From IMG/VR virus record IMGVR_UViG_3300042287_000745, positions 10,736 to 74,735 of that record: a stretch of 64,000 nucleotides of DNA. The stretch is one strand, 5' to 3'. The stretch's first letter is position 1; each line of letters starts with the position of its first letter. The notes under the pieces are model-generated. The model had not been told where the DNA came from and ran no database searches. It worked only from the letters and a program-made list of their open reading frames with translations. The stretch comes from a virus. Below are positions 9,487 through 45,840 of the stretch, piece by piece. A program made the translations under genes and the position numbers.

Positions 9487-9501
9487 TAGGAGTAAGAAGA
9501 A

Positions 9502-10089: not shown

Positions 10090-10111
10090 TATTATATAAA
10101 GTGATTTAATT

Positions 10112-11653: not shown

Positions 11654-11661
11654 GAGTCATT

Positions 11662-11988: not shown

Positions 11989-11994
11989 ACTAAG

Positions 11995-13236
11995 ATGAAA
12001 AAATTTAATTCAATTCGAGAAGAGTCTCTTTTAGAAAAATTAAAATCTTCGGATCCTACTGGCAAGTGGATACATGATTTTGTAAAAAGTGACAATCCTA
12101 AATTTGCAGGTAAAAGCAAACAGGAAAGAATCCGCATGGCTTTAGGTGCATCATATGCTGCTAAGCGCAATGAAGAAGTTGAAGTTGAAATTGATGAGCA
12201 AATGGTACCACCTAAAGGGTTTCGTAAACCTGGTGATGACCGAGGCACAGAAATGGGCGGCGGCGGAGCCGGAGTCGGCAGCACTACAACTAGTAATGTC
12301 GGCAAAACAGTTCCAATTGGAGGTGTTTATCGTAGATATGCAGAACCTGCAGCTGAGCCAGTTAAAACAGAACCTGCTAAACCTGATCTTAAAACTAGAT
12401 ATGATGCGGAGATGGAAAAGGTTCGTGCTGGGAATACTAGTACAAAGAAACAAGATTATCCCACATTGACCGACGTAATTCCCGAACCTTCGAAAACTAG
12501 TAAACCCGATCGTGCAGGTAGAAAAGAACCTACAATGGGAGAACCGGTTTCTCCCCCAGATCGTATGGGCAGAAGAGAACCTACAATGGGTGAGCCTTCA
12601 ACAAAACTTACAAAACGAGAAATTGCGTCTCGTCTAAGAGAACCAAGTGGACCAATTGGCGAGGAATTAGACGCACCTAAAACACAAGCATCACAATTAA
12701 AAGATATGTTATCTAATCCACAACATATTAGTAATCCTGAGCATAAGTCGCAATTAGAAAAACGATACAAAATTGCAAAAGATAGAGAAGATTTAGATCA
12801 GGGGCAGGCTGTAGATAAAACAGGTAAAGCAATGGCGGTATTACCACCTGCAGATTTTGCTAAAAAGAATCCGAATTTTAATAAAGAACATTCGGAAGAA
12901 TATGATACTAGTATAACGGCATTAGATGAGATTGCTAAAAAAATAAAAATCAAAATTAATTATCCTACGCAAACTAAAGCAGAAATTGCGCAGGCTAAAT
13001 ATAGAAAACAAAGCGGTTTACCTGATCCTAGCTATTATAAAAAGTATGCTGCCCAGAAACAAGCAGAAATTGATGCTATGAAAAATGAAGCTGCTAAGCC
13101 CGGCCTTTATGCAAATATACAGGCTAAACGTAAACGTATTGCTGCGGGCAGTAATGAAAAAATGCGCAAACCCGGTACTGAAGGTGCGCCAACCGCTCAA
13201 GCGTTTAAAGATGCTGCAAAAACAGCTAAGAAATAA
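11995..13236 (+). CDS. Prohead core/internal head protein (gp68 position), modular and low-complexity
   Basis: MKKFNSIREE start typical of T4-like internal head proteins; located between gp67-like and gp21. Confidence 0.55.
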   Translation: MKKFNSIREESLLEKLKSSDPTGKWIHDFVKSDNPKFAGKSKQERIRMALGASYAAKRNEEVEVEIDEQMVPPKGFRKPGDDRGTEMGGGGAGVGSTTTSNVGKTVPIGGVYRRYAEPAAEPVKTEPAKPDLKTRYDAEMEKVRAGNTSTKKQDYPTLTDVIPEPSKTSKPDRAGRKEPTMGEPVSPPDRMGRREPTMGEPSTKLTKREIASRLREPSGPIGEELDAPKTQASQLKDMLSNPQHISNPEHKSQLEKRYKIAKDREDLDQGQAVDKTGKAMAVLPPADFAKKNPNFNKEHSEEYDTSITALDEIAKKIKIKINYPTQTKAEIAQAKYRKQSGLPDPSYYKKYAAQKQAEIDAMKNEAAKPGLYANIQAKRKRIAAGSNEKMRKPGTEGAPTAQAFKDAAKTAKK

Positions 13237-20552: not shown

Positions 20553-21031
20553 TGGAAGATATAACATACTATAAACTATTGAAGCTTTCATCTGGAGAGA
20601 ATATTATTTGTGGGACTGAGGACAATTGTAAAAATTTTACAGAAAAAGGTATGATAAGCATATCTAATCCGGTAGTTTTAAATGTACTTAGAACTCCGAA
20701 AGGTAAAAATTTGGTAGAGACGTATATACTTATACCTTGGTTTAGTTTTGCAAATGGCAATGTATATGACATTTCTACAGATCAGATTATTACAGCTATA
20801 GATATTAAGGAATCGCTAAAATCGAATTACTTTTCATATTTAGAACAGCGAGCATTAGAAGATGAAATAGAAGATGGGTTATCAGAAGATTTTGATAATG
20901 AAGATGAGCTTCAGGAAATAGAAGAATTCCTGGAAACCTTGGGAGAAACACATGACGACGAAAATGACTACGATGGACGAGACGACACCGGTACTACAAG
21001 AAGTAGAAGAGGTACGAGAACCCTCCACTAA
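20552..21031 (+). CDS. Conserved hypothetical protein (Sm-like N-terminus, acidic tail)
   Basis: LLKLSSGENII start; usual position between uvsW and gp55. Confidence 0.65.
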   Translation: MEDITYYKLLKLSSGENIICGTEDNCKNFTEKGMISISNPVVLNVLRTPKGKNLVETYILIPWFSFANGNVYDISTDQIITAIDIKESLKSNYFSYLEQRALEDEIEDGLSEDFDNEDELQEIEEFLETLGETHDDENDYDGRDDTGTTRSRRGTRTLH

Positions 21032-21584
21032 ATCTAAAATGGATCCTGCTCATTATGTGGATAATAAAAAATTCTTAGCAGAACTACTAATATACAAAAC
21101 TGCCGTAGATGCAGCGAAGGAAGCAGGCCAAGAAATCCCACAGGTTCCGGATTATATAGGTGAATGTTTTATTAAAATTGCAACTCATCTTTCATATAAA
21201 TCTAATTTTATTAATTATACCTTTAGAGATGATATGATTTCAGATGGTATAGAAAATTGTTTAACTGCCGCAGGAAAATTTGATCCCACAAAATCATCTA
21301 ATCCTTTCGCATATTATACTCAAATTGTTTTCTTTGCGTTTATTCGTAGAATCCAAAAAGAGAAAAAACATCAAGCAACCAAATATAAAATAATTGAAAA
21401 TTTAGACTTAGATTCAATTATTCAGCAAAATGATGATAGCGAATCGGGTAGACAATTAATTGAATTTTTAAAGAAACAATTAGATACAATTGATCCAGAA
21501 AAACGGGAAACCCCATCCGAAACAAAATCTCGAAAAAAGAAGTCTGCTGAAATGGATATTCCTACTATAGACTTACTTACCTAA
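20952..21584 (+). CDS. gp55: Late-transcription sigma factor gp55
   Basis: HYVDNKKF, YIGECFIKIA, MISDGIENC and NPFAYYTQI motifs. Confidence 0.95.
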   Translation: MTTKMTTMDETTPVLQEVEEVREPSTKSKMDPAHYVDNKKFLAELLIYKTAVDAAKEAGQEIPQVPDYIGECFIKIATHLSYKSNFINYTFRDDMISDGIENCLTAAGKFDPTKSSNPFAYYTQIVFFAFIRRIQKEKKHQATKYKIIENLDLDSIIQQNDDSESGRQLIEFLKKQLDTIDPEKRETPSETKSRKKKSAEMDIPTIDLLT

Positions 21585-21596
21585 ATACTATATACT
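21568..21596 (+). promoter_or_regulatory. Putative sigma70-type promoter for the queE cluster
   Basis: TAGACT-N17-TATACT, followed by TGTATAAT. Confidence 0.45.
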
Positions 21597-21622
21597 GTAT
21601 AATTAAATTGATAAAGACTTAT

Positions 21623-22486
21623 ATGAGCAAAATTAAAGTAGCAGAACTATTTTATAGTATTCAGGGAGAAGGTCGGTACATGGGTGTTCCTTCTGTTTTC
21701 TTGCGCACATTTGGTTGTAACTTTAAGTGCGCAGGGTTTGGTATGCCAAAAGGTCAAGTTAGTACAGAAGTAGATGATATTGCATATACGCATATGAATA
21801 TTGAATCATTCCAAACATATCAAGAACTTCCTTTGGTAAGTACTGGGTGTGATAGTTATGCAAGTTGGGATCCTAGATTTAAGGGACTATCTCCTCTCCT
21901 TGAAGTTGACAGTATCGCAAAATCTATTGTAGACCTGTTACCCGCAAAAGGTTGGCAACAAGAGCATTTGGTAATTACTGGCGGTGAACCTTTATTGGGC
22001 TGGCAAAAATCCTACGAAGAATTATTAGAACATCCTTTGATGAAATCTTTAGATGAACTAACATTTGAAACAAACGGTACCCAATCTTTGACTGAGGAAT
22101 TTACTGATTATCTATTTCAAGAATGGACGCGATTTGGTAGAGATTATGATAAATTAACTTTTTCGGTTTCCCCTAAATTATCTGTTTCGGGAGAAAAGTG
22201 GGAAGATGCAATTAAGCCAGATGTAGTTTGTGACTATCAAAAAATAGGCAATACGTATTTAAAATTTGTAGTAGCATCAGAAGAAGATGTCGTTGAAGCA
22301 GAAAAAGCAGTAGCGGAATATCGCAAAGCCGGATTTTATGGGCATATTTATTTGATGCCGGTAGGTGGTATTGAAACCGTGTATTATATGAACAATAAAC
22401 GAGTTGCAGAAATGGCAATGAAGTTGGGCTGGAGATATTCCGATAGATTACAAGTTCCCTTATTTAAGAATCAATGGGGAACGTAA
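21623..22486 (+). CDS. queE: 7-carboxy-7-deazaguanine synthase QueE (radical SAM)
   Basis: ELFYSIQGEG, FLRTFGCNFKC...CDS, ITGGEP, ETNGT, SPKL and RLQV motifs; ATG start at 21623 (ORF track starts at 21608). Confidence 0.9.
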   Translation: MSKIKVAELFYSIQGEGRYMGVPSVFLRTFGCNFKCAGFGMPKGQVSTEVDDIAYTHMNIESFQTYQELPLVSTGCDSYASWDPRFKGLSPLLEVDSIAKSIVDLLPAKGWQQEHLVITGGEPLLGWQKSYEELLEHPLMKSLDELTFETNGTQSLTEEFTDYLFQEWTRFGRDYDKLTFSVSPKLSVSGEKWEDAIKPDVVCDYQKIGNTYLKFVVASEEDVVEAEKAVAEYRKAGFYGHIYLMPVGGIETVYYMNNKRVAEMAMKLGWRYSDRLQVPLFKNQWGT

Positions 22487-22911
22487 TGGAATATAGCTAT
22501 TCTGATTATGATGCTGATATATATTCTTTGTTGGCAAAAATAAAACAACGTAATAAAAAGTATGATTATGTTGTAGGTATTAAACGTGGAGGACTTATTC
22601 CTGCGGTATGTTTATCGCATGCTTTAAATATTCCATTATATAATTTAGATTGGTCTACACGAGATTGGGCGACGCAGGATATTCGTAATCAAGTATTACA
22701 ACCCGAATCTAAAATTTTGCTAGTAGATGATATTTGCGACTCCGGCAAAACTCTAATAACATTGAAAGAACTATATAGTTTTTGTGATATTGATACTGCG
22801 GTGTTAGTTTATAATATAGATCAGATACACATACCAAATTATTATGCAAGAACTATTAATCGAAAATATCAAAAAGAATTTATTAATTTTTGGTGGGAAG
22901 CATATAAATAA
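22474..22911 (+). CDS. Type I purine phosphoribosyltransferase (Gpt-like)
   Basis: GIKRGGLIPA, LLVDDICDSGKT PRPP loop and FWWE end. Confidence 0.85.
   Translation: MGNVMEYSYSDYDADIYSLLAKIKQRNKKYDYVVGIKRGGLIPAVCLSHALNIPLYNLDWSTRDWATQDIRNQVLQPESKILLVDDICDSGKTLITLKELYSFCDIDTAVLVYNIDQIHIPNYYARTINRKYQKEFINFWWEAYK
22903..22910 (+). promoter_or_regulatory. T4-type late promoter upstream of folE
   Basis: TATAAATA followed by hairpin TGTCGC-acaacg-GCGACA (22915-22932). Confidence 0.65.
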
Positions 22912-22971
22912 CTATGTCGCACAACGGCGACAAATTACAAAACTCATATCCGTGTAAGGAAGGATTCTAAA

Positions 22972-23652
22972 ATGTCATACAACAAAACTAAAACAGATTC
23001 AGAATTAGGTCAACAAGTACATGCCTACCTAGTTAAAATGGGAGTTGAAACTCCTACTATTTCTAGACTAATTGATCGTAAAGAAAAAATTGAGATTATT
23101 GAAAAGAATTTCATTAATATTATGGACACACTTGGATTGGACTTATCAGATGATAGTCTAATGGAAACCCCTAAACGGGTCGCAAAAATGTATGTCAACG
23201 AAATATTTTGGGGATTAGATTATGATGCATTTCCAAAATGTACTACGGTTGAAAATAAAATGCGTTATAACGAAATGGTTGTTGAGCGTAATGTAAATGT
23301 TCAAAGTAATTGCGAGCATCACTTTGTAGTTATTGATGGGTTGGCGACTATCGCATATGTTCCTAAAAATCATGTTCTTGGTTTAAGTAAAATTAATCGT
23401 ATCGTAGAATATTTTAGTAAGCGCCCTCAAATACAGGAACGGTTAACAGAACAAATTTTTCATGCATTATGTTTTATTCTAAATACTGACGATGTTGCTG
23501 TATTAATTGATGCTCAGCATTACTGTGTTAAATCTAGAGGTGTTGAAGATACGGGCAGTTCTACTGTTACCGTACGCCTCGGAGGAGGATTTAAGACCGA
23601 CCCCGCAGTAAGAAATGAATTTTTAAGTATTGCGAGAATGGGCAAAAAATGA
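22972..23652 (+). CDS. folE: GTP cyclohydrolase I FolE
   Basis: ETPKRVAKM, SNCEHH, GLSKINR, RPQIQERLT and HYCVKSRGV motifs. Confidence 0.95.
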   Translation: MSYNKTKTDSELGQQVHAYLVKMGVETPTISRLIDRKEKIEIIEKNFINIMDTLGLDLSDDSLMETPKRVAKMYVNEIFWGLDYDAFPKCTTVENKMRYNEMVVERNVNVQSNCEHHFVVIDGLATIAYVPKNHVLGLSKINRIVEYFSKRPQIQERLTEQIFHALCFILNTDDVAVLIDAQHYCVKSRGVEDTGSSTVTVRLGGGFKTDPAVRNEFLSIARMGKK

Positions 23653-24161
23653 CTGTTCATGTTATGATTGATCTAGAAACAATGTCTACAAGATCACATG
23701 CGGCGATTTGTTCAATAGGTGCAGTAAAGTTTAAAGGTAAAGAGATTCTTGATACCTTTTACTGCACCATTGATTTAAAAACGTGTAAAGATGTTGGTCT
23801 ACATATATCGAAGGATACTGTAGAATGGTGGTCTAAACAAAATAAAGAAGCACTAAAAGCTTTAACTAAAAATACTATTCCGTTGGACGAAGCATTAACC
23901 AATTTTGAGGGTTGGTTCGGTCCTAAGAGTTTACCTATATGGGGCAACGGTGCAGTATTTGATAATACAATTCTTACTAACGCATATTTGTATTCCGATA
24001 GAGAACCACCTTGGAAATGTTGGGATGATAGATGTTATAGAACAGTTAAGAATTTATTTAACTGGATTCCTGCAGATGAAAGGGTCGGCGTTCATCATAA
24101 TGCTTTAGATGATGCGTTATATCAAACAAACCATTTAATTAAAATTTTAGGCGATTCGTAA
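23649..24161 (+). CDS. DEDDh 3'-5' exonuclease (exonuclease VIII/Rv2179c-like)
   Basis: MIDLETM, WGNGAVFD and HNALDDA motifs. Confidence 0.88.
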   Translation: MTVHVMIDLETMSTRSHAAICSIGAVKFKGKEILDTFYCTIDLKTCKDVGLHISKDTVEWWSKQNKEALKALTKNTIPLDEALTNFEGWFGPKSLPIWGNGAVFDNTILTNAYLYSDREPPWKCWDDRCYRTVKNLFNWIPADERVGVHHNALDDALYQTNHLIKILGDS

Positions 24162-24192
24162 TACAATATTAAATTGAGTTGAATAATTAACT

Positions 24193-25557
24193 ATGAATAC
24201 GTATAAAAAAAGAATAGCATTTTGTCTTAGTGATCAACATACTATTCCTCACGGCGGATTAGGTCAATTCGCAAAATCCTTTATTGAAACTTTTACTCCT
24301 CTCGGATATAAGGTAGATATTATATTAGATAGACCAGCATCTAATACAGGGTTCAAAACATACTTAGAAGAACAAGGCGCAAGATTTATTTGCGCCGAAC
24401 CTATTAGCTATACAAACCATACAAAAACATTTATGTTTGAGGATTCCTTTAACTTTGAAAAGATGGTAAATTTCAGGGAATCCATGATGAAAGCACTTAA
24501 TGAAAATTTGTATGACATTATTATATGTAATACATTAGAATCATTCCCCGCAATTTATTCATTGAATCTACAAAAAAGTATACAAATAATTTATTATACC
24601 CATAATGAAAGTATGGTATTTTTAGATGATCGTGAATGGAAAAATGAATTTACGGAATCATTTAATGAAACATTTAACGCATTAATGGGCGTTAAAGGTA
24701 TTACGATTGGTACTCAGACTTTGCGAAATTTATCTGAATTACATAAGTCTAAAATACCAAATGCGAAATATTTGCCAATACTTATGACTGAGAAAACATT
24801 ACTACAAAAGCACATTAAGCCTAGAGAAGGTGTATTGTGGATCGGTCGATGGGAACCTAGGAAAAATCCAGAAGCATTTATTGAGATGATTCAACAAACA
24901 GGATTGCCTGCAAAAGTAATTACAAATGCAACAGGCGCAAAGAAGTTTGAAACTGCATTGCAAGCTATTAATGCTAAATATGAAATAAGATCAGGAATAT
25001 ATGGACAAGAAAAGGTAGACTTTTTAACGTCTGCGAGAGTAGCATACAATCCTGCGATACGAGAAAGTTTTGGATTAGCATTTTATGAAACAATAGGGCA
25101 CATGCCGACCGTTGCAATTGAGGGAATGTCCTGGTTAGGAAATTTTCCTAATACTAACTATTTTGCAGTACAGAAAAAAGTAGTACCTAAGGTAATCGTT
25201 GACCTATATGCAAAGTTTAAGAATTCTGAACTTTGGTATCAACAAGGAGTTCTAGAATCAATACGAACTTTAGATAGAAATGGTATAGAAGAATGGGAAC
25301 GGTGTTTTAATTCTTTTGAATATATTAAATCAATTTCTGAAAGAGCTAAAATTAATGAAGTCGATGTATCTACGTATAAAGATTTTATAACTTCTCTAAA
25401 TAGGAAAGCTTTGTCTATTGACGATGTTCGTTCTGTATTGACAAACAAGCATAAATTTAATATAATATACACAGATACACAAACCTATATATCTAAAGAC
25501 AAAAACTTCGTTCCAAAAGAAGAATCTGATAATTCACTAGAAAGTTTATTCGTATGA
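24193..25557 (+). CDS. GT-B glycosyltransferase (GT4-like)
   Basis: HGGLGQF, IGRWEPRKNP and ESFGLAFYE motifs. Confidence 0.85.
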   Translation: MNTYKKRIAFCLSDQHTIPHGGLGQFAKSFIETFTPLGYKVDIILDRPASNTGFKTYLEEQGARFICAEPISYTNHTKTFMFEDSFNFEKMVNFRESMMKALNENLYDIIICNTLESFPAIYSLNLQKSIQIIYYTHNESMVFLDDREWKNEFTESFNETFNALMGVKGITIGTQTLRNLSELHKSKIPNAKYLPILMTEKTLLQKHIKPREGVLWIGRWEPRKNPEAFIEMIQQTGLPAKVITNATGAKKFETALQAINAKYEIRSGIYGQEKVDFLTSARVAYNPAIRESFGLAFYETIGHMPTVAIEGMSWLGNFPNTNYFAVQKKVVPKVIVDLYAKFKNSELWYQQGVLESIRTLDRNGIEEWERCFNSFEYIKSISERAKINEVDVSTYKDFITSLNRKALSIDDVRSVLTNKHKFNIIYTDTQTYISKDKNFVPKEESDNSLESLFV

Positions 25558-26843
25558 GCCGACAATTAGAATATGTTATATCTGGACCAGCATACCTTCG
25601 GTTGGGGTCTGAGCAATGCGATGATCCTGAAACATTGCAAATGATTAATGATTTGATTCTTAAAACGGTTCATAATAAAAATAATCATCAATTTTCTCTT
25701 TTGTATAATGGATTTACAGAAAAGAACTTTGGTAAGAAATTGCAAAAATATAGACCAGCAGTTAAAAATATTCATGCGGACTCTGGTGGTTTGCAGATTG
25801 TTACTCGTGGATTGCAGAATACTCCTGAGACAAGAAACAAAGTATATGAAAATCAGGCAGCATGGGCAGATATTGGAATGGCATTTGATGAGATTCCGGT
25901 AAAATCTACTTCTGCAAGTGGCGTATCCTCAAAAATTGATACTAAACGTAGATATGTTGATATGGAAAATTTTGAGACATATGCAAGACAGACAGGTAAG
26001 AATGTTAAAGATCAAATTTTAAAATTTGATTCTGTTAAAAGTGATTGTCGTCCTTTTGTTATTATTCAGGGGTCAGGGCAAGATACGTATCAGCAGTGGA
26101 CTGAATATATGTTAGATGAAATTCCTAAAGAATTGCATCATCGTATTGGCGGTGTCGCTATGGGATCGGCTGCATTGGGTATGGGACCACTCGAAGATGT
26201 AAAGCGAGCATTTTATGTAAATGCTGTACCTTTTGAAAAACCGTTTCATCTACACGTACTAGGGGTAGGTGCATTAAAACGCATATTGCCGTATTTACTT
26301 TTTAGCCAAACTGGTCTTTATAAAGATATTGATATATCATATGATTCTACAACACATTCTATGTCATTGGATAACGGATTATTTTACTTCTCACATTGTA
26401 AAAAAGGTACACCTGGAGACTATGGTGGATCATCTGTAAAAATGGGTAGACCATATTCTAATATCTATCGGACTGTTACTAACGAAATTAATTCAGTATG
26501 TGGTACAGATTACTCCCCTGAAGAATATCATAAATTGATGAATATTTCAGTCGGTGAATATTTAGAAAAGGGTGGTAAATTTATAGATATTATGCGTGCT
26601 CGACTTTCCTTTATTTTAACAAATGTGCATAATTTTACTATGGATGTCTCAAACTTAATGAATTCTAAAGATGAATTTTTACGTTTCTGTAGAGATAAGA
26701 ATTGTGAAAATGAATATAGTACATTATTCGATGTCAAAACATCTGAGGATTTTATCTATTGGGAAAAACACGTAGGAAAATTTATGGATTCATCTCCGGT
26801 AAATATTATTGCACCATCATCTCTTGAGGACTTATTTGCATGA
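25554..26843 (+). CDS. TGT-fold guanine transglycosylase, DpdA-like (7-deazaguanine insertion into DNA)
   Basis: DSGGLQ, MAFDEIP, IIQG, IGG, HVLGVG and YDST correspond in order to TGT catalytic motifs; no CxCxxC Zn site; lies among que genes. Confidence 0.75.
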   Translation: MSRQLEYVISGPAYLRLGSEQCDDPETLQMINDLILKTVHNKNNHQFSLLYNGFTEKNFGKKLQKYRPAVKNIHADSGGLQIVTRGLQNTPETRNKVYENQAAWADIGMAFDEIPVKSTSASGVSSKIDTKRRYVDMENFETYARQTGKNVKDQILKFDSVKSDCRPFVIIQGSGQDTYQQWTEYMLDEIPKELHHRIGGVAMGSAALGMGPLEDVKRAFYVNAVPFEKPFHLHVLGVGALKRILPYLLFSQTGLYKDIDISYDSTTHSMSLDNGLFYFSHCKKGTPGDYGGSSVKMGRPYSNIYRTVTNEINSVCGTDYSPEEYHKLMNISVGEYLEKGGKFIDIMRARLSFILTNVHNFTMDVSNLMNSKDEFLRFCRDKNCENEYSTLFDVKTSEDFIYWEKHVGKFMDSSPVNIIAPSSLEDLFA

Positions 26844-27259
26844 ATTTTGCTAGCTCAATTATTAATACATCTGACATAATTATGAAACAAACAAGTTATA
26901 TTTGGGTAACATTCCAAAAAGAGGGTATCCACAAATATCCTGCTGCGGCAACGGATCCTAAATTAGCAACAGGCGATTGGCTCGATGTTAGTTTCTTAAG
27001 TACACCACATCGGCATATATTTCATTTCAGAGTTGAGATGCAGGTATTCCATGATGATCGAGATGTAGAATTTATACAAGCAAAACGAATAATGGAACGA
27101 TGGTATTCTGATGGCACATTGCAGTTAGATTATAAATCTTGCGAAATGATGGCTAGAGAGCTATATGGTCGCCTAAATACTATGTGGCCTAATAGAAATT
27201 ATGTTATTGAAGTATCTGAAGATAACGAAAACGGTTGTAAACTATATTTTGGAGAGTAA
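26840..27259 (+). CDS. QueD-like T-fold paralog (possible DpdL-type enzyme)
   Basis: EGIH, PHRHIFHFRV, DRDVEF, SCEMMA and EVSED motifs resemble the PTPS/QueD fold. Confidence 0.6.
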   Translation: MNFASSIINTSDIIMKQTSYIWVTFQKEGIHKYPAAATDPKLATGDWLDVSFLSTPHRHIFHFRVEMQVFHDDRDVEFIQAKRIMERWYSDGTLQLDYKSCEMMARELYGRLNTMWPNRNYVIEVSEDNENGCKLYFGE

Positions 27260-27265
27260 ATACTG

Positions 27266-28438
27266 ATGCGTAAATTGATATACTGTGGACTTGAGCCATA
27301 CGAAGGCCGTTATACTTTGCAGCTTCAGCAATGGAACGAAGCGGCATTTAAACGTAGAGGCATCAATTATGAAATTATCCATGGTGATACTTTGGATAAT
27401 TCTAAGTCAATTGTAACCGGGCAAGTATTGGATGCACATGGTCGTAGTTATTATTCTTTGACACAGATGGCAAAACTTGTTGCAAAGATGAAAGCCGGCG
27501 AAATTCAGTATGATGACATAATTTTCTTCGAAGATATGTTTACTCCTGGTATGGAAGTATTACCTTACATTATGGATCAATGTGGTTGGGAACATCAGCC
27601 TAGAGTTTTTGTTAGGTGTTTAGCTCAGACAATTGATCCCGACGACTTCTTACATGTCTGGGATATGCAAGGATGGATGGCACACTATGAGAAGATGGTT
27701 AATACTTGGGTTAGTGGTGTATTAGCATCAAATGAGGAGATGGTTGCTCATATGAAAATTGCGGGTTGGCAAGTGCCTATGTATAATATCTCAGGATTAG
27801 CATTTGATCAAAATGAGGTTCGTAGTCGAGTAAAGAATATTCGCCCATTCAACGAACGTAAAAATCGAGTAGTGTTCTCTGCAAGATTCGATCAGGAAAA
27901 GCAGCCGGGATTCTTTATGGATATTATAGAACATTTTGGGCCTAAATCGGATATTGAATTCGCGGTGTTGTCGGGTGGCCCTTTACGTAGTAATGACGAC
28001 TCCTATATAGACCGAGCAGTTGAATTAACTAAGAAGCATCCGAATTTTAAAATATACGAAAATCTTAAAAAGGATGAGTATTATGAATTGCTTGCAGATT
28101 CCAAAGTATTATTTAATTGTGCCTTGCAAGATTGGGTAAGTAATACTGCATCAGAAGCAGACGCATTAGGCACAAATTGTTTGTTCCCCGCCTACAGATC
28201 ATTTCCTGAAACATTCGCAAATGATCCCGAATGTTTATATATTCCTTGGTCTAAAGAAGATGCCACAAATAAATTAGAGTGCTTATTGGAAACTCCTAGA
28301 AACGGCATTGGCACATTGGCTAACTGGACCTCAGGAACTATTGACAGATGCCTCGATATTATGTTAGGATTAGATAATGGTAAGTGGAATAGAAATCAAT
28401 CTAATTATAGAAATCATACATCTGAGACCAAGTATTAA
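27266..28438 (+). CDS. GT-B glycosyltransferase
   Basis: FSARFDQEKQPGFF, YYELLADS and LQDWVSNTASEA C-terminal nucleotide-sugar-binding motifs. Confidence 0.78.
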   Translation: MRKLIYCGLEPYEGRYTLQLQQWNEAAFKRRGINYEIIHGDTLDNSKSIVTGQVLDAHGRSYYSLTQMAKLVAKMKAGEIQYDDIIFFEDMFTPGMEVLPYIMDQCGWEHQPRVFVRCLAQTIDPDDFLHVWDMQGWMAHYEKMVNTWVSGVLASNEEMVAHMKIAGWQVPMYNISGLAFDQNEVRSRVKNIRPFNERKNRVVFSARFDQEKQPGFFMDIIEHFGPKSDIEFAVLSGGPLRSNDDSYIDRAVELTKKHPNFKIYENLKKDEYYELLADSKVLFNCALQDWVSNTASEADALGTNCLFPAYRSFPETFANDPECLYIPWSKEDATNKLECLLETPRNGIGTLANWTSGTIDRCLDIMLGLDNGKWNRNQSNYRNHTSETKY

Positions 28439-29413
28439 ATGACTAAGACTGTTATAGTTACAGGCGCCGCCGGTTATATCGGTGGCGCTATTTGCATAGA
28501 ACTTATTACCAAAGGGTATTATGTAATCGGTATTGATCGCCGAGCATTACCTTCGCATTTGGAAATATATTGCGATGAATTTATCCAATCTGATTTTATT
28601 GGTTATGCATCATTAATGCAAGTAGAAAAACAACCATGTGCAATTATACATTGTGCGGGTACAAGTTTAGTTGGACCTAGTATACAAAACCCCGAAGAAT
28701 ATTATGAAAACAATATTCAGAAAACTTTAGAATATCTAAAATATATTCGCAAACGTTCTGCAAATACCAAATTTATTTTTAGTAGCAGCGCCTCTGTGTA
28801 TGGGAATCCTAATACAGATGTACCAATAACAGAAGAACAACCAACTAATCCTATTTCACCTTACGGTGAATCTAAGTTAATGATTGACCGGGCTTTGCAT
28901 TCTTTTAATATCGCATATGGTATGCAATATGTTTCTTTTAGATATTTTAATGCATGCGGAGCAATTGAGAACAGTATACATGGGCAGGAGGCAAACGCTT
29001 CACATATTTTTCCTAGAGTGTTTGAAGCAATTTTAGAAAATCTCCCATTTACATTAAACGGAAATGATTATAATACTAAAGATGGGACCTGTGTTAGAGA
29101 TTATGTTCACGTATCAGATATTGCTAGCGCACATGTAATGGCAATAGAAAAAAATATACAAGGAATATATAATATAGGATCTATCAGAGGTTACTCTAAT
29201 CTGGAGATCATCAAAGAAGTATCTAAATGTTTAGGTAAAAACTTATCTATTGAAATTGCAGATAAGCGTATAGGTGACCCTGCATATCTAATTGCAGATT
29301 CTAATAAATTATTTTTAGATGCGGGTTGGACAGCAAAAAAAGATTTACGTACTATTATTAAAGATTTACATGACTGGTACTTCCCAGAGGCCTCCGGCGC
29401 TCATCCCTCTTAA
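28439..29413 (+). CDS. galE: UDP-glucose 4-epimerase (GalE-like extended SDR)
   Basis: TGAAGYIG, FSSSASVYG, YGESK, RYFNACG and DGTCVRDYVHV motifs. Confidence 0.85.
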   Translation: MTKTVIVTGAAGYIGGAICIELITKGYYVIGIDRRALPSHLEIYCDEFIQSDFIGYASLMQVEKQPCAIIHCAGTSLVGPSIQNPEEYYENNIQKTLEYLKYIRKRSANTKFIFSSSASVYGNPNTDVPITEEQPTNPISPYGESKLMIDRALHSFNIAYGMQYVSFRYFNACGAIENSIHGQEANASHIFPRVFEAILENLPFTLNGNDYNTKDGTCVRDYVHVSDIASAHVMAIEKNIQGIYNIGSIRGYSNLEIIKEVSKCLGKNLSIEIADKRIGDPAYLIADSNKLFLDAGWTAKKDLRTIIKDLHDWYFPEASGAHPS

Positions 29414-29448
29414 AATATTCTGCGTGTCTTCTTTTAAATATGGAGACA
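29386..29448 (+). promoter_or_regulatory. Candidate preQ1-I-like riboswitch plus SD-sequestering hairpin upstream of queD
   Basis: AGAGG/CCTCT P1 stem, loop ending CATC, A-rich linker, CGG/CTG pseudoknot; TGTCTTC/GGAGACA hairpin covers the queD RBS. Confidence 0.55.
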
Positions 29449-29454
29449 AATAAA

Positions 29455-29940
29455 ATGACAAACAAAAAATTCTTTTCTACAAAAACATACAGACAAATCG
29501 GGCCAGTTGCTTACCGGCAATGGCGCGCCGATTCTCATTGCAATTTAATTCATGGTTATGCTATGAGTTTTCACTTTGAATTTGAAGCAGATACGTTAGA
29601 TGCTCGCAATTGGGTTACTGACTTCGGAGGACTAAGACCACTTAAGGATAGTCTAGAAGAGTGGTTCGACCATACTTTACTTGTCGCTGAAGACGATCCT
29701 ATGCGAGACGAACTACTGCACTTAGGTAAAATTGGCCTGGCTAAAATTACAGAAGTAGAACGAACCGGTTGCGAAGGCATTGCTGATTTTCTATATGAAT
29801 ATATTAACACTATCTTTTTACCTAATTGCGGCGCAGAAGAAGCAAAACGGGTCTGGTGCTGCCGGGTAGAGGTCCGGGAAACAGATTCTAATATGGCTGG
29901 CAGAAACGGTCACCGAGAAGATAATGAATTTATGGCATAA
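29455..29940 (+). CDS. queD: 6-carboxy-5,6,7,8-tetrahydropterin synthase QueD
   Basis: HCNLIHGY, WVTDFGGL, FDHTLL, GCE and VEVRET motifs; GGAG at 29442-45 favours the ATG at 29455. Confidence 0.88.
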   Translation: MTNKKFFSTKTYRQIGPVAYRQWRADSHCNLIHGYAMSFHFEFEADTLDARNWVTDFGGLRPLKDSLEEWFDHTLLVAEDDPMRDELLHLGKIGLAKITEVERTGCEGIADFLYEYINTIFLPNCGAEEAKRVWCCRVEVRETDSNMAGRNGHREDNEFMA

Positions 29941-30444
29941 ATGAAAAAAACAAATATCGCAAAGGGTGCTCAAAGTAAAGATGAGTATGTAGGCGATTTA
30001 ACTATTGCATTTATAAATCATAATACATCTGAATATCCGGTTACAGTAGGTGCAGTAAAATTTGCACCTGTTCCTGTAACTAAGCAAAAAGATTTGATGT
30101 TAAATGTTGCAAGATTGCATGCGCAACAAGAGTATGATAGAATTATGGAATTAGTTACTGTGCTACAAAAACAAGCACATGGAATTAAACATAGATTAGA
30201 TTTTACTGATCGAGTACATGCTGCAGAATACTCATTTCAATTATATCATGGACAAACCTATTGGTTAGCATTTGATAAAAAAATACAAAAAACGATTTTA
30301 ATAATCAATGGACCGAATGACTGGTCTACGGGTGCGCCAGCACACTATGACTATATTACACGGGCTAAATGGTTAGGTGATCATACCTGGTTAGAAGTCG
30401 ATGAAGAAGGAAATCCTGTAAATGAAAATAGCGTTAATTACTGA
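29941..30444 (+). CDS. Hypothetical protein (DUF2452-like)
   Basis: 167-aa ORF; resemblance recalled only. Confidence 0.55.
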   Translation: MKKTNIAKGAQSKDEYVGDLTIAFINHNTSEYPVTVGAVKFAPVPVTKQKDLMLNVARLHAQQEYDRIMELVTVLQKQAHGIKHRLDFTDRVHAAEYSFQLYHGQTYWLAFDKKIQKTILIINGPNDWSTGAPAHYDYITRAKWLGDHTWLEVDEEGNPVNENSVNY

Positions 30445-31486
30445 TACACACTTTGGGGCAAGGTCGGATTCGCAACCATTTGATGCATATTTTAAAAGAT
30501 TTTATCAAGAATCATTTTTCCCAGAATTACAAAAACGTAATATTAAAAATATTATTCACCTAGGTGATTGCTTTGATCGTCGGAAATATATCAATTTTAA
30601 TTCTTTAAAATCTTGCCGGGAGTATTTCTTTGATCAAACAAAGTACCTTGGCATTACTATGGATATGATTATTGGTAATCATGATACATTCTTTAAGAAT
30701 ACGAATAATGTAAATTCGCCCGATTTACTACTAACCGAATATGCAAATATTAATGCATATAAAGATGCGACGGAAGTAGACTTCGGTGATTGTACTATAT
30801 TGATGATGCCGTGGTTGTGTGCTGATAATTACGAAGAATCAATGACGCTAGTTAAAAAAACTAAAGCAACGGTGTGTTTTGGTCATTTAGAGTTAGCAGG
30901 ATTTGTAATGTACAAAGGTCAAAATACGCAGGAATCGCATGGCGGTTTAGATTCTAAATTATTTAGCAAATTTGATTTAGTATGTTCTGGGCATTTTCAT
31001 CATAAGCATAGTGGAGGCAATATCCATTATTTGGGTAATCCATACCAAATGTTCTGGAATGATTTTGAGGATCCTAGAGGATTTCATATCTTTGATACTG
31101 TTACTTTGGAATTAGAATTTATTGAGAATCCTTTTACGATATTTGAAAAATATTATTATGATGACGATAAAGAAGATGTGTCGACAATAGATATTACTAA
31201 ATTTGCAAGTAAACTAATAAAATTGATAGTTGTAAATAAAAAAGATTTTATTAAATTTGATACGTTTATTGAAAATATATACAATCAAAATCCAATTGAA
31301 TTAAAAATTATCGAAGACTTCTCGGAGTTTGAGGCAGAAGCCTTAGATGAGACAATTGACTTAGAAGATACTATGACTCTATTATCCAACTATGTTGATA
31401 GTATAGAAACAGATGCGGATAAAGACCGTATTAAAACTTTGATGAAATCGTTATACGTAGAAGCTCAAAATTATGAGGAAGCATGA
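30422..31486 (+). CDS. gp47: Recombination endonuclease gp47 (Mre11-like)
   Basis: ITDTHFG, LGDCFDRR, GNHD and SGHFH motifs. Confidence 0.95.
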   Translation: MKIALITDTHFGARSDSQPFDAYFKRFYQESFFPELQKRNIKNIIHLGDCFDRRKYINFNSLKSCREYFFDQTKYLGITMDMIIGNHDTFFKNTNNVNSPDLLLTEYANINAYKDATEVDFGDCTILMMPWLCADNYEESMTLVKKTKATVCFGHLELAGFVMYKGQNTQESHGGLDSKLFSKFDLVCSGHFHHKHSGGNIHYLGNPYQMFWNDFEDPRGFHIFDTVTLELEFIENPFTIFEKYYYDDDKEDVSTIDITKFASKLIKLIVVNKKDFIKFDTFIENIYNQNPIELKIIEDFSEFEAEALDETIDLEDTMTLLSNYVDSIETDADKDRIKTLMKSLYVEAQNYEEA

Positions 31487-33201
31487 TAAAATTTAAGACT
31501 ATACGTTGGAAAAACTTCTTATCAACAGGAGCACAATTCACAGAAGTTGGATTAGATAAATCAACTACCACATTAGTTGTTGGTGAAAATGGTGCCGGTA
31601 AAAGCACCATTCTTGACGCATTGTGTTTTGTTTTATTTAATAAACCATTTCGTAGTATCAATAAGCCTCAATTACTCAATACGATCAATGCTAAAAATTT
31701 ACTAGTAGAGTTAGAATTTAATATTGGTCCTAAAGAATATAAAATTGTTCGGGGTATTAAACCTGGTATCTTTGAAATTCATGTGCAGAACGTGTTATTG
31801 AATCAAGATGCCGCAGCGAAAGATTACCAAAAATATTTAGAAGATACTATTCTAAAATTAAATTATAAATCATTTACGCAGATTGTAATTTTAGGTAGTG
31901 CATCTTTTACTCCCTTTATGCAATTGCCGTTGGGTCATCGAAGAGAAATTATTGAGGATATTTTAGATATTCAAATATTTACAGTAATGAATTCGGTATT
32001 GAAGAATAAACAAACTGAAATAAAAAATTCAATTTTGGATATAGATTCTAAAGTAGAGTTTGGTAAAAGCAAGGTTAAATTACAACAAGACTACATTAAA
32101 ACCCTTGAAGATGATATACAAAAACGGGCAAAGGATACTACAGTATTAATTGAGACTGCAAATATTGCAATTAACGGTTTTACTACAGAGATAAACACAT
32201 TAAAATCGCAAGTGGATGGATTAAAACTTACAATTTTAGATGATGATGAAACAAAGAAAAAAGAAAAACAAATACTTAAAGTACTGGACAAACTTAAAGA
32301 GAAGTCAAAGAAAGTAAATTCTGACATCACATTCTATCTTAACCACGATGATTGTCCCACATGCAATCAAAATTTAAGTGAGGACTTTAAGGATAAAACG
32401 ATTACGGAACATAAGCATAAATCGTCTGAGGTTGCTGATGCTATAAACGATTTAGAAAACCAAATAACCGATATTAATTTGCGATTAGAAAAAATAGATG
32501 TAGTTAAAACTAAGATTGCAGAATTGAATGAATCTATTATTGAATTTAGCTCTAGTTTAATTGCCGAACAAAACTATATTAAAAAATTAGCAAAAGAGAT
32601 TCAGGATAGTGCTACCAATACTACCAACATAGATGAGGAAAAAACTAAATTAAAGGCATTGGCTAAAGATGTTATTCTTTTGTCTGAAGAAAAAGGTAAG
32701 CAAACAGAAGAAAAACACTATTTTGAGATTGCGGGTATACTTTTAAAAGATACCGGAATTAAAACTAAAATTATTAGACAATATTTGCCAATCATTAATA
32801 AATTAGTAAACAAGTATTTAGTGGCAATGGATTTCTTTTGTCATTTTGAATTGGATGAAACATTCAATGAGACAATAAAGTCTAGGCATCGAGATGAATT
32901 TTCGTACGCATCATTTAGTGAAGGTGAAAAACAGCGTATTGATTTGGCGCTATTATTTACTTGGCGAACAATTGCAAAAATGAAAAATTGCGCTAGCACA
33001 AATTTGCTATTACTTGATGAGGTTTTCGATTCATCTTTAGATGCAAATGGTACAGATTATGTGATGAACCTTATAAATACTTTAGGTGACGAGACTAATG
33101 TATTTGTAATTAGTCACAAGGGAGATCTTCTATTTGATAAATTTAGAAGTGTTATAAAATTTGAGAAACACCAAAATTTCTCTAGAATACAAGGAAGTTA
33201 A
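31483..33201 (+). CDS. gp46: Recombination ATPase gp46 (Rad50-like)
   Basis: GENGAGKST, CPTC zinc hook, FSEGEKQRID and LLDEVFD motifs. Confidence 0.96.
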   Translation: MIKFKTIRWKNFLSTGAQFTEVGLDKSTTTLVVGENGAGKSTILDALCFVLFNKPFRSINKPQLLNTINAKNLLVELEFNIGPKEYKIVRGIKPGIFEIHVQNVLLNQDAAAKDYQKYLEDTILKLNYKSFTQIVILGSASFTPFMQLPLGHRREIIEDILDIQIFTVMNSVLKNKQTEIKNSILDIDSKVEFGKSKVKLQQDYIKTLEDDIQKRAKDTTVLIETANIAINGFTTEINTLKSQVDGLKLTILDDDETKKKEKQILKVLDKLKEKSKKVNSDITFYLNHDDCPTCNQNLSEDFKDKTITEHKHKSSEVADAINDLENQITDINLRLEKIDVVKTKIAELNESIIEFSSSLIAEQNYIKKLAKEIQDSATNTTNIDEEKTKLKALAKDVILLSEEKGKQTEEKHYFEIAGILLKDTGIKTKIIRQYLPIINKLVNKYLVAMDFFCHFELDETFNETIKSRHRDEFSYASFSEGEKQRIDLALLFTWRTIAKMKNCASTNLLLLDEVFDSSLDANGTDYVMNLINTLGDETNVFVISHKGDLLFDKFRSVIKFEKHQNFSRIQGS

Positions 33202-33202
33202 T

Positions 33203-33799
33203 ATGGCAAATGATACTTGGCAATTACAAACGCATACGGTAAATACGTATTGTTATTATTCAGGAGTATTTGATGATGAAATGCTTGACGATATTGTTAC
33301 GTTGGGCGATTCTCTTTTATTAAAAAATGCAGAGGTTGGTGGAAATTTTGATGTGCCAGGTGGCGAAAATGCGGATATTCGAAAAACAACTATTGGTTGG
33401 ATTCCTACAAACGATCAAAATGCTTGGCTTTATAGAAAATTAACAGACAGCATCTTTCAGGCAAATTCAAAATGGTTTAATTATGATCTTAACCATATTG
33501 AATCACTACAATTTTCAGTATATAATGAAGGTGATTTTTATGATGCGCACGTTGACCATCATTATCAAGGCGCAGGGCAATATCCTAGAAAATTGAGTTT
33601 TACTATGCAATTATCAGATCCTTCGGATTATGAGGGCGGCGATGTAAATTTAATTACGTCTCAAACCCCATTTGCAATTCCAAAAGAGCGAGGAACAATT
33701 ACATTTTTTCCTTCGTATACTTTACATGAAGTTAAACCTGTTACCAAAGGAATCCGAAAAGCATTAGTTGGCTGGATTCACGGCCCTAATTGGAAATAA
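33203..33799 (+). CDS. 2OG-Fe(II) oxygenase (prolyl-4-hydroxylase/PKHD type)
   Basis: HVD, RKLSF, YEGG, HEVKPVTKG.R and W..GP.WK motifs; likely start 33203 (ORF track 33161). Confidence 0.88.
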   Translation: MANDTWQLQTHTVNTYCYYSGVFDDEMLDDIVTLGDSLLLKNAEVGGNFDVPGGENADIRKTTIGWIPTNDQNAWLYRKLTDSIFQANSKWFNYDLNHIESLQFSVYNEGDFYDAHVDHHYQGAGQYPRKLSFTMQLSDPSDYEGGDVNLITSQTPFAIPKERGTITFFPSYTLHEVKPVTKGIRKALVGWIHGPNWK

Positions 33800-37669: not shown

Positions 37670-38545
37670 TTGATAAAGTATAGCGTACGCAAGTACGCTA
37701 TACCTACGTATATGCACACTAATGAAAATACTTATGATACGTTTATTCCTAGATGGTTTGGCCGTTTAGGTAACAACATACAACAAATATCTAACGGAAT
37801 TTATTTCTGCAGAGATAACAAAATACATTTTACATCACCAGACCACCCCATGGTCGAAGCCATTGATTTGAATTTTGGTGACAATAATTTTAGCATACCG
37901 CCAAATTCTCACAATTGGTTTTATTTCTTTGATGGGTCCGATGCTGACTTTAGTACAAATACCGATGATTTAAATTTTCAACGCAAGCATATCTGCGAAG
38001 AATATATATTACCTAAGCTTAAAATTAATCATATCGAATTAGATAAACCATTGCCCGACGATGTGTTAGTAATTCATATTAGAAGCGGAGACTTATATAC
38101 GAATTGGCCATCTAGCCACCCACAGAATCCTTTTGCATATTATGTAAAATTATTTAATATGTATCATGGTAAAGTAATTTTTCTTGTAGAAGATCTACAT
38201 AATCCGATTGTAGATTATTTTTCTAAAATTTCTACTGATACAAGAGTGTGTTCTATTGAAGATTCATATTTACTTTTACTACAAGCAAGAAACATTGCAT
38301 CATCGGGAGCGGGATCTTTTGTAATGGGCGCTGCTCTTTGTTCTAAAAATATTAAAAAGTTTTATTGTACCAATCTTTGGTTGCCTAATAGTCTAAACCC
38401 TACGATGCTAAAAGATCATCTTGAGGTATACTGCGCACACCTAGTAGGTGATAAATATATAAAAATTGGCGAATGGCATTGCTCCACTGAAACCATTGAT
38501 AAGATTTTAAATTATAACGAAGATATATTATTTGGGAGATTATAA
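37670..38545 (+). CDS. GT11-like alpha-1,2-fucosyl/colitosyltransferase
   Basis: GRLGNNIQQ and IHIRSGD motifs; true start probably an ATG around 37711. Confidence 0.65.
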
Positions 38546-39560
38546 CATGAATAAACAAGTTGCCTTAATTACAGGCATTACCGGTCAAGACGGGTCTTAT
38601 CTTGCAGAATTACTACTAGAAAAGGGATATGAGGTACATGGCGTAGTTCGTCGTAGCTCGTCTAGAAATACTGGTAGAATAGATCACATCTATAGTAATC
38701 CAAATTTACATTTGCATTATGGTGACATAACCGATTCGTTAACCATAATGAACATTCTTAAGAAACACAATCCATCTGAAATTTATAATTTAGCAGCACA
38801 GAGTCACGTAATGGTATCGTTTGAGACACCAGAATATACTGCAAGTGTGGACGGCTTAGGTACTCTAAAATTACTTGAGTCTGTTAGAATTTTGAATATG
38901 GATAAAACAACTAAGATTTATCAAGCATCTACGTCGGAATTATATGGATTGGTGCAGGAAACCCCTCAAAGAGAAACAACTCCTTTTTATCCTAGATCCC
39001 CATATGGTGTAGCGAAATTGTATGCATATTGGATAGTTAAAAATTATCGGGAATCATATAATATGTTTGCGTGTTCAGGAATTTTATTTAATCACGAATC
39101 GCCCCGACGCGGATTTAATTTTGTGACTAAAAAAATTGTAGATGGACTTGTTAATATTAGCGGGGGCTACCAAGATTGTCTATATATGGGTAATTTAAAT
39201 GCTATGCGGGATTGGGGTCACGCCAAGGACTATGTTCGGGCAATGTGGATGATGCTGCAACAAGATAAGCCGGATGATTTTGTTATTGCGACGGGCGAAC
39301 AATATTCAGTCAAAACATTCATTGAAAAATGTGCACCGTATTATGGTATGGATATTCGCTGGGAAGGTGAGGGCATTAATGAAGTTGGTATTGATAATAA
39401 TTCAGGGAAAACTATTATTCGAGTAGATCCTAAATATTTTAGACCGGCCGAAGTAGAAACTTTGCTAGGTGATTCGACAAAAGCTAGAACTATTCTAGGA
39501 TGGTCGCCAGAATATACATTTGATATGCTAGTAAAAGAAATGTGCATGGAGTTTAACTAA
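38532..39560 (+). CDS. gmd: GDP-mannose 4,6-dehydratase
   Basis: [40 protein letters not shown] and FNHESPRRG motifs. Confidence 0.96.
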
Positions 39561-40195: not shown

Positions 40196-40204
40196 GATAG
40201 TAAA

Positions 40205-45833: not shown

Positions 45834-45840
45834 GGTTAAA

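Follow-up and report, generated by a model that had tools for sequence, protein, structure and literature searches.

We analysed a 64-kb stretch of viral DNA (the window) from the IMG/VR record IMGVR_UViG_3300042287_000745, a viral contig of 74.7 kb with a CheckV completeness estimate of 41%. The presence of UvsY, UvsW, gp55-like, gp47/gp46, gp45, gp44, gp43, UvsX and gp41 homologues marks its source as a T4-like myovirus. Given that the DNA polymerase is only about 50% identical to those of cyanomyoviruses, the phage has no close cultured relative; the GC content of the window is about 34%. Our subject is a ten-gene 7-deazaguanine block at 21608-29940, entirely on the + strand, which encodes QueE, a purine phosphoribosyltransferase (PRTase), FolE, an exonuclease, a first glycosyltransferase (GT1), a transglycosylase (DpdA), the QueD-like protein DpdL, a second glycosyltransferase (GT2), the epimerase GalE and QueD. 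The original prediction had named ten such genes in these places, between gp55 and gp47, and had proposed that the glycosyltransferases and GalE attach sugar to a deazaguanine, or to another base, in the phage DNA. Family matches and gene junctions confirmed the ten genes and their strand. A gp55-like gene (20952-21584, with a weak match to sigma-70 r2), UvsW and UvsY flank the block on the 5′ side and gp47/gp46-like genes on the 3′ side, an interval that we take to be the position of the alpha-glucosyltransferase gene in T4.

The junctions at the centre of the block were particularly tight. GT1 and DpdA overlap by an ATGA at 25554-25557, as had been noted, DpdA and DpdL share another at 26840-26843, and GT2, which had been seen to follow the QueD-like gene, starts 6 nucleotides after the DpdL stop codon. 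Because of these overlaps and this spacing, GT1, DpdA, DpdL and GT2 appear to be translationally coupled. Moreover, the recurrence of the same gene set in more than 200 independent viral contigs indicates that the ten-gene grouping is more than a chance assembly.

The gene at 25554-26843 (+) encodes a DpdA2-family DNA guanine transglycosylase of the long form (phrog_10773, E 9e-95). Residues 5-274 were 36-37.5% identical to YP_008125322 of phage nt-1 and AGB06799 of phage VH7D (tblastn, E 1e-47), relatives that belong to Schizotequatrovirus and Mylasvirus vibriophages; the VH7D gene is placed between folE and queF/queC. YP_008125322 is the founding DpdA2 (PMC6884629), and both vibriophage enzymes, expressed in E. 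coli, put preQ1, preQ0 and CDG (7-carboxy-7-deazaguanine) into DNA (PMC10516641). The window protein additionally has a C-terminal domain of about 155 residues that is absent from the vibriophage enzymes. Three motifs, D76-S-G-G-L-Q, F111-D-E-I-P and S262-Y-D-S-T-x-H, were invariant in 32 relatives and match the pattern of the tRNA-guanine transglycosylase (TGT) superfamily, namely an aspartate in DSGG, one in xFDE and one near the end of the barrel; we take the aspartates of DSGGLQ, FDEIP and SYDSTxH to be catalytic or substrate-binding residues. Against the tRNA Tgt equivalog model, the protein scored 21 bits, compared with a cut-off of 307 bits (E 1.3e-4, aligned residues 65-245). A sequence search of the PDB with DpdA returned nothing useful and a profile of its family matched no TGT chain, so the link to TGT enzymes rests on the NCBIfam match, the conserved motifs and the homology to DpdA2. 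Together with its location within a base-synthesis cluster, these comparisons identify the TGT-fold protein, by homology, as a DpdA-type DNA transglycosylase and not a tRNA TGT, the choice that the original prediction had posed.

The small T-fold protein encoded at 26840-27259 (+) had been described as a QueD paralog. This description held insofar as the protein is QueD-like, but its motif LSTPHRHIF and its homology to gp040 of phage phiST assign it specifically to DpdL, a predicted CDG decarboxylase in which the signature LxxxHRHxF stands in place of the CxxxHGH of QueD (PMC10516641). The window motif fits this signature, and phiST gp040 (CGPG_00067), which adjoins a MazG-like gene, aligned at 34% identity with a query coverage of 87% (tblastn E 3e-8; local blastp E 5e-14). 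Identity to the homologue in Acidovorax phage ACP17 was higher, at 59%, and motif and homology point to ASD50405 as the ACP17 DpdL. In the record, DpdL co-occurs with FolE, QueD, QueE and DpdA and without QueC, of which there was no trace in the 74.7 kb of this 41% complete record or in the complete genomes of phages BUCT-ZZ01 and ACP17. Since DpdL is present and QueC absent, the pathway would branch at CDG, and the inserted base is, as judged from gene content, most likely unsubstituted 7-deazaguanine (DG). Elsewhere, DpdL occurs in other surroundings: in Vibrio phage Bakedbeans, whose genome has no GT2 homologue, it forms a fusion with an N-terminal domain of some 260 unannotated residues (L012, 6209-7390), and in Rhizobium phage RHph_I1_18, likewise GT2-less, a macro-domain (Appr-1-p processing) protein directly follows it (L011, 7426-8250).

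Pfam matches of the two glycosyltransferases were weak (E 0.0055 and 1e-4), and their fold was identified from AlphaFold2 models. GT1 (24193-25557, +; mean predicted local distance difference test score, pLDDT, 89.8) was modelled as a GT4-type GT-B enzyme whose top Foldseek matches were MshA, sucrose-phosphate synthase, tll1591 and BshA (E 1e-11). It has an invariant GRWE..K motif (G218-R-W-E..K224), an exact EX7E (E291, E299) and a C-terminal extension of about 100 residues. GT2 (27266-28438, +; pLDDT 95.0, predicted template modelling score, pTM, 0.93), the enzyme coupled to DpdL, was likewise of the GT4-type GT-B fold and matched BshA, SenB, sucrose-phosphate synthase, GlgM, MshA and PimA best in Foldseek (E 1e-13 to 1e-11, with 2e-13 given for the top matches BshA, SenB, sucrose-phosphate synthase and MshA); among viral models, A0A218M2Y2 of ACP17 ranked second, with template modelling (TM) scores of 0.75/0.85. 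R207 and K212 of GT2 are invariant within the motif SRxDxEKxP, and a Q288-D289...E297 variant takes the place of EX7E. A PDB search with the single GT2 sequence gave no matches, and a profile of 62 GT2 relatives matched GT4 enzymes at the donor domain; the profile matches of the glycosyltransferases include WlaC and MshA. On the strength of these models and residues, both enzymes look catalytically competent. Neither model seems specifically close to the DNA glucosyltransferases of T4, whose structures were absent from the PDB entries listed among the fold matches of GT2. One long relative of GT2 (P0169) carries 290 extra residues that match nothing.

We then compared the gene neighbourhoods of both glycosyltransferases. 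The GT2 family is large: at least 7,996 of the 90%-identity clusters matched, as did 820 of the 50%-identity representatives (E <= 1e-3). We sampled 80 IMG/VR loci of close relatives (59-98% identity) and 80 around a distant member (about 30% identical to GT2 of the window), labelling neighbouring genes by iterated searches with hidden Markov models. DpdL was present in 150 of the 160 loci, within 1.5 kb of GT2 in 148, and 153 loci had a DpdA, which belonged to any of three subtypes. Among the close loci, 75 had DpdL (73 within 1.5 kb) and 74 had DpdA, divided between the long DpdA2 (21) and a DSGGFQ-motif family about 520 residues long (53); the distant loci had DpdL in 75, always within 1.5 kb, and DpdA in 79, either phrog_887, which is DpdA1-like (58), or the ~520-residue family (21). 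Iterated searches found no phiST-type DpdA3 in any GT2 locus. Loci without DpdL or DpdA mostly lay at contig ends, and in all five DpdL-less loci of the close set GT2 was no more than 1.4 kb from the contig start. Median gaps between DpdL and GT2 were 39-245 nucleotides, and the lineages differ in whether DpdL lies upstream or downstream of GT2. That the pairing is kept across phage types, DpdA subtypes and gene orders argues for function and not just shared descent.

GT1 behaved differently in distribution, although it resides in the same deazaguanine clusters. Of 79 newly sampled loci, whose GT1 relatives were at least 47% identical, 76 had QueE and 67 had DpdA, with GT1 standing beside DpdA2, or after QueE in contigs with the ~520-residue DpdA. 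The neighbourhood test of the glycosyltransferases against dpdA was therefore passed very strongly by GT2 and also by GT1. GT1 itself occurred in 28 of the 80 close GT2 loci and none of the 80 distant ones; for GalE, the numbers were 61 (in most of them, listed directly after GT2) and two. The earlier view of GalE and the glycosyltransferases as one system thus held for GT2, which is strictly coupled, but not for GalE and GT1, which are lineage-specific accessories; GT2 is the conserved core glycosyltransferase of this type of system. A scan of 185,579 species genomes with a tight alignment, which reaches close relatives only, gave six GT2 matches, all in contigs of metagenome-assembled genomes, and the GT2 atlas clusters were 96-100% viral. 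Essentially, then, the family is virus-only, and it spans T4-like, jumbo and PolA-type phages. Together, these results make a strong case for placing the GT2 family in the DpdL pathway.

Several further observations emerged from the sampled loci. The ~520-residue DSGGFQ family stood beside DpdL and GT2 in 74 of the 160 loci, for example at L037:5311-6858 and, as EST35_0316 of phage PA5oct, at L010:4239-5861. It had no Pfam or PHROG match, the IMG/VR T4-like contig and PA5oct members were 35% identical, and hhalign gave an 88.9% probability for similarity to the long DpdA2 family; from these comparisons it looks like an unnamed DpdA subfamily. In L037, a gene of the GMP-reductase/IMPDH family directly follows GT2 (9379-10482), and a cytidylyltransferase-like gene (11608-12099), which recurs in 27 GT2 loci, lies nearby in the same locus; the two are possible accessories for guanine recycling and for sugar or polyol activation. 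An A-family DNA polymerase adjoins the deazaguanine cluster in 41 of the 80 distant loci, and the member that we examined (L096:9039-11666) was fused to an N-terminal uracil-DNA glycosylase domain. This polymerase type has been tied to T-modified genomes (2026 NAR paper); in the GT2 loci it lies beside G-modification genes.

Turning to cultured phages, we found DpdL homologues in 28 records. A GT2 homologue lay within 3 kb of DpdL in Acidovorax ACP17, Xanthomonas X1, Pseudomonas PA5oct (E 6e-28), Sinorhizobium Phosso (E 2e-31), Burkholderia BCSR5 (E 5e-55) and Synechococcus BUCT-ZZ01; in ACP17 it sits between dpdA and dpdL, and a GT2 match was present in BUDD as well. Genome-wide searches found no GT2 homologue in phiST, RHph_I1_18, Bakedbeans, D479, Ahp1 or MA9V-3. 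DpdL systems therefore fall into two classes, with and without GT2. Phages with a long DpdA2 and QueC (Moby, pf16) had neither DpdL nor GT2 in their clusters, and a genome-wide check for GT2, made on Moby alone, was negative. In Stenotrophomonas phage Moby, a gene annotated as inositol-3-phosphate synthase lies inside the cluster of FolE, QueC-like, DpdA and QueE genes (L005, 5505-6755); this arrangement is shared by Menderavirus phages, without DpdL and GT2, and hints at a different, polyol-type decoration of deazaguanine.

The chemistry of DpdL systems has been analysed in the class without GT2 only, where the DNA of phiST contains 100% 2′-deoxy-7-deazaguanosine (dDG) (PMC10516641). In the same study, dpdL and dpdA of ACP17, expressed in E. 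coli without the intervening gene, yielded no dDG, and its authors suggested that enzymes were missing (PMC10516641). PA5oct DNA resists restriction enzymes with G in their sites, which points to a modified G.

The remaining genes of the block include those for synthesis of the base and, probably, for a sugar donor. QueE, the radical-SAM CDG synthase, extends from 21608 (TTG) or 21623 (ATG) to 22486 (+; phrog_2076, E 2.4e-52); the ATG is the more likely start, and homologues align from residue 6 on. The protein matched the NCBIfam QueE models at E 1e-16 and was 48% identical to QueE of BUCT-ZZ01. FolE, GTP cyclohydrolase I, is encoded at 22972-23652 (+; PF01227, E 3.7e-60, 202.9 bits), and QueD, 6-carboxy-tetrahydropterin synthase, at 29440-29940 (+; PF01242, E 7.4e-16; phrog_2389, E 4.7e-41), with the Cys/His motif retained (SHCNLIHGY). 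Between QueE and FolE lies the Gpt/XPRT-like purine PRTase (22474-22911, +; PF00156, E 3.6e-12), whose nearest NCBIfam family was xanthine PRTase at E 2.8e-9, below the cut-off. Its homologues occur in the BUCT-ZZ01 and PA5oct clusters and in 22 of the 160 GT2 loci. We infer that this Gpt-like enzyme salvages the guanine released by base exchange, and the GMP-reductase/IMPDH-like gene beside GT2 in L037 points the same way. GalE (28439-29413, +) exceeded the equivalog cut-off for UDP-glucose 4-epimerase (TIGR01179, 286.9 versus 262.3 bits) and probably supplies UDP-galactose-type donors.

Whether the DEDDh 3′-5′ exonuclease at 23649-24161 (+; Rv2179c-like, PF16473, E 4.4e-46) is part of the deazaguanine pathway is uncertain. 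It was found at the same place in 55 of the 79 GT1 loci, follows GT2 in BUCT-ZZ01, and has a DEDDh counterpart beside the phiST cluster (L013, 3411-4334). The occurrence of such an exonuclease in or beside the cluster in three arrangements, those of the window, BUCT-ZZ01 and phiST, could exceed coincidence.

For a candidate preQ1-I-like riboswitch ahead of queD (29386-29457), where GalE and QueD are only 26 nucleotides apart, we compared 21000-31000 with Rfam at a lenient threshold of E <= 1, and neither a preQ1 family nor anything else relevant matched. Outside the block, a separate sugar island at 37670-47266, between gp46 and gp45, encodes a GDP-mannose 4,6-dehydratase (Gmd), an FkbM methyltransferase, a short-chain dehydrogenase-type epimerase/reductase, a DegT-family aminotransferase-like enzyme, a GT10 fucosyltransferase-like protein, a glycosyltransferase of the family named GT2 and several unannotated open reading frames. 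A 2-oxoglutarate-Fe(II) oxygenase gene follows gp46 (33161-33799), and a gene for a non-specific DNA/RNA endonuclease (57065-57865; PF01223, E 5e-49) overlaps the end of the DNA polymerase gene.

Based on these findings, we propose, at a probability of roughly one half, that the block is an operon for DpdL-type modification of DNA with 7-deazaguanine and includes a branch dedicated to glycosylation, the product of which is a glycosylated 7-deazaguanine. In this model, FolE, QueD and QueE convert GTP into CDG by established chemistry, and DpdL, as others have predicted, would remove the carboxyl group to give DG. The DpdA2-type enzyme, by analogy with what has been shown for its family, would swap guanine in the phage DNA for the deazaguanine. 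From its gene coupling and fold, GT2 would use a nucleotide sugar to act on the product of DpdL, either as the free base or as the base in DNA, yielding the glycosylated form. In the lineage of the window, GalE may provide a UDP-galactose-type donor and GT1 may add another sugar or glycosylate a second site, while the Gpt-like PRTase would recycle the guanine freed by the exchange.

Candidate acceptors on DG are the exocyclic N2, O6 and, by C-glycosylation, the pyrrole ring. N2 is the best-precedented by analogy with huimycin, in which HuiG, a PF13439-type glycosyltransferase, N-glycosylates a 7-deazapurine base at its 2-amino group (bioRxiv 10.64898/2026.04.15.718813). Three features speak for action of GT2 on the free base: how closely it is paired with DpdL, its structural neighbours among GT4 enzymes of small molecules, and an acceptor domain that is acidic. 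The T4 precedent speaks for action at the level of DNA, as does a probable requirement for DpdA to recognise the 2-amino group. The modification would likely shield the DNA of the phage against restriction enzymes and against defensive glycosylases directed at deazaguanine.

The claim that the glycosyltransferases and GalE glycosylate a deazaguanine gained from the DpdA-type identity of the transglycosylase, from the co-occurrence data and from the absence of a ThyA-family hydroxymethylase (PF00303), which had no match in the record, BUCT-ZZ01, ACP17 or X1, so that no other sugar acceptor is supplied. We also count in its favour the confident GT4-like folds with their conserved donor-binding residues, the lack of QueC, the tight gene junctions, the near-restriction of the GT2 family to viruses, the absence of GT2 from DpdL phages such as phiST that make plain dDG, the failure of ACP17 dpdL and dpdA without the intervening glycosyltransferase gene, and the modified G of PA5oct. 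A number of points weigh against it. DG lacks a C7 substituent, and a picture in which sugar is placed on a side chain therefore has no acceptor. The decarboxylation of CDG by DpdL is so far a prediction by Cui et al., and QueC may be encoded elsewhere in the phage genome, the record being 41% complete. GT2 is acidic (isoelectric point, pI, 5.3 overall and 5.0 for the acceptor domain) and its nearest solved structures act on small molecules, a combination that suits an acceptor such as a free base or a metabolite more than DNA and that may leave room for a sugar that never reaches DNA; the pI is nevertheless no discriminator for DNA binding, since DpdA itself has a pI of 6.3. Models resembling the T4 alpha-glucosyltransferase ranked only 19th and 23rd among viral structures for GT2 (TM 0.48-0.57). 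Given the separate sugar island in the window, GalE need not serve the deazaguanine pathway, and the literature that we searched contained no nucleoside data for any GT2-bearing phage.

Of the alternatives, the one that survives best, although we consider it unlikely, is that the DNA holds plain dDG, as in phiST, and that GT2 is an obligatory helper that does not decorate DNA; it could, for example, transiently glycosylate a pathway intermediate, be a structural partner for DpdL or have a protein as its substrate. DpdL without QueC does predict dDG, and DG offers no acceptor at C7. The short DpdL-GT2 gaps would suit a complex or consecutive small-molecule steps, and the inactivity of ACP17 dpdL and dpdA alone would be accounted for. 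Conversely, the donor-binding residues of GT2 are invariant across a family of 820 clusters at 50% identity, which argues for selection on its catalytic function; phages of the phiST type produce dDG and have no GT2, and GalE and a second glycosyltransferase have been recruited to the same operon.

It is improbable, in our estimation, that GT2 glycosylates a free 7-deazapurine base to form a soluble, huimycin-like glycoside (an antimetabolite, or a storage or export form) in parallel to DNA modification. HuiG provides the precedent (bioRxiv 10.64898/2026.04.15.718813), and the small-molecule GT4 neighbours and acidic pI of GT2 would be accounted for. Yet DpdA accompanies GT2 in 153 of 160 loci, the family is virus-restricted, and the clusters contain no transporter or natural-product tailoring genes.

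Still less credit is due to a glycosylated pterin, comparable to the biopterin glucoside of cyanobacteria, made by FolE, a PTPS-like enzyme (QueD or DpdL) and the glycosyltransferases, with the link to DNA a coincidence. DpdL is indeed a T-fold relative of PTPS, and GT1 and GT2 show weak sequence and moderate fold matches to BGluT, the UDP-glucose:tetrahydrobiopterin glucosyltransferase. These matches were no better than those to other GT4 enzymes (sequence E 0.9-2.8; fold rank 37 for GT2 and 13 for GT1), and we rejected a BGluT identity for either protein, finding no similarity beyond the generic GT4 level. Furthermore, QueE, which commits the pathway to a deazapurine, and DpdA accompany the DpdL-GT2 pair almost everywhere, and the cluster has no sepiapterin reductase.

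Least probable of all is that the glycosyltransferases and GalE act on an unrelated target (a hydroxymethyl-pyrimidine, virion proteins or the host envelope) and merely reside in a hyperplastic T4-like region: T4-like genomes often hold glycosyltransferases in variable regions and the window has its sugar island with Gmd, DegT, GT10 and GT2-family genes, but relatives of GT1 and GT2 lay in deazaguanine clusters at nearly every sampled locus, across unrelated phage types, and a T4-type hydroxymethyl-pyrimidine system is disfavoured by the lack of any PF00303 match in the 41% complete record, BUCT-ZZ01, ACP17 and X1.

The glycosylated-deazaguanine product of the block thus stays a prediction at about even odds. 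The broader form of the model, that the DpdL-GT2 pair is a widespread source of sugar-bearing 7-deazaguanine in DNA, mono- or di-glycosylated in the window phage through GT2, GT1 and GalE, we advance tentatively, at odds a little short of even. The well-known sugars of DNA are all carried on pyrimidines: glucosyl- and arabinosyl-hydroxymethylcytosine and base J. To our knowledge, eight 7-deazaguanine derivatives have been described in phage DNA, none with a sugar, and a sugar-bearing 7-deazaguanine, if confirmed, would as far as we know be the first glycosylated purine-type base in natural DNA. In line with the original prediction, literature searches found no report of a characterised glycosylated 7-deazaguanine in DNA; the term 'glycosyl' is absent from the main text of Cui et al. 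2023 (PMC10516641). With a family of glycosyltransferases tied strictly to DpdL, the deazaguanine pathway would gain a new branch, and a requirement for GT2 could explain the failed reconstitution with ACP17 dpdL and dpdA. The model also names a concrete possibility for the modified G in therapeutic jumbo phages of the PA5oct type and predicts new substrates of, or escape routes from, defences against deazaguanine DNA, namely Dag glycosylases, END nucleases and type IV enzymes. If it is correct, the modification would be widespread, the GT2 family having thousands of 90%-identity clusters in metagenomes and three DpdA subtypes as partners, and many environmental phages may hold a sugar-bearing purine in their DNA. 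The question is directly testable, as six cultured phages have the DpdL-GT2 pair.

Compared with known systems, the window combines features that are otherwise found apart. Like the alpha- and beta-glucosyltransferases of T4, which transfer sugar from UDP-sugar onto a non-canonical base after replication, its glycosyltransferases are phage proteins of the GT-B fold; the T4 acceptor is 5-hydroxymethylcytosine, whereas the window lacks a hydroxymethylase and its expected base is a purine analogue without a hydroxymethyl handle. The huimycin/dapiramicin pathway, likened here by description, resembles our proposal in that a GT4-type (PF13439) enzyme places a sugar on a 7-deazapurine made via FolE, QueD and QueE, and differs in belonging to actinomycete secondary metabolism and acting on the free O-methyl-preQ0 base, with no DpdA and no DNA involved. 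The DpdA2 systems of nt-1 and VH7D (Hutinet 2019; Cui 2023) share the catalytic domain of the transglycosylase, its location beside FolE and the T4-like genome, but they have QueC with QueF, ArcS or DpdM, insert preQ0, preQ1 or G+ at low levels, possess DpdA C-terminal halves that cannot be aligned with that of the window, and lack DpdL and glycosyltransferases. With the dDG system of phiST (PMC10516641), the window has in common FolE, QueD, QueE, DpdL with LxxxHRHxF, a TGT-fold DpdA, a DEDDh exonuclease nearby and the absence of QueC; phiST carries DpdA3, a MazG-like gene and an ATPase and no GT2 homologue, in contrast to the DpdA2-type enzyme, GT2, GT1, GalE and PRTase of the window. Finally, ACP17, PA5oct, X1, Phosso, BCSR5 and BUCT-ZZ01 have the same core of DpdL, a GT2-family glycosyltransferase (in our sense of GT2) and DpdA, together with FolE, QueD and QueE, in clusters whose genes are annotated as hypothetical or as generic glycosyltransferases, and BUCT-ZZ01 additionally has GT1, the PRTase and the exonuclease, in nearly the order of the window.

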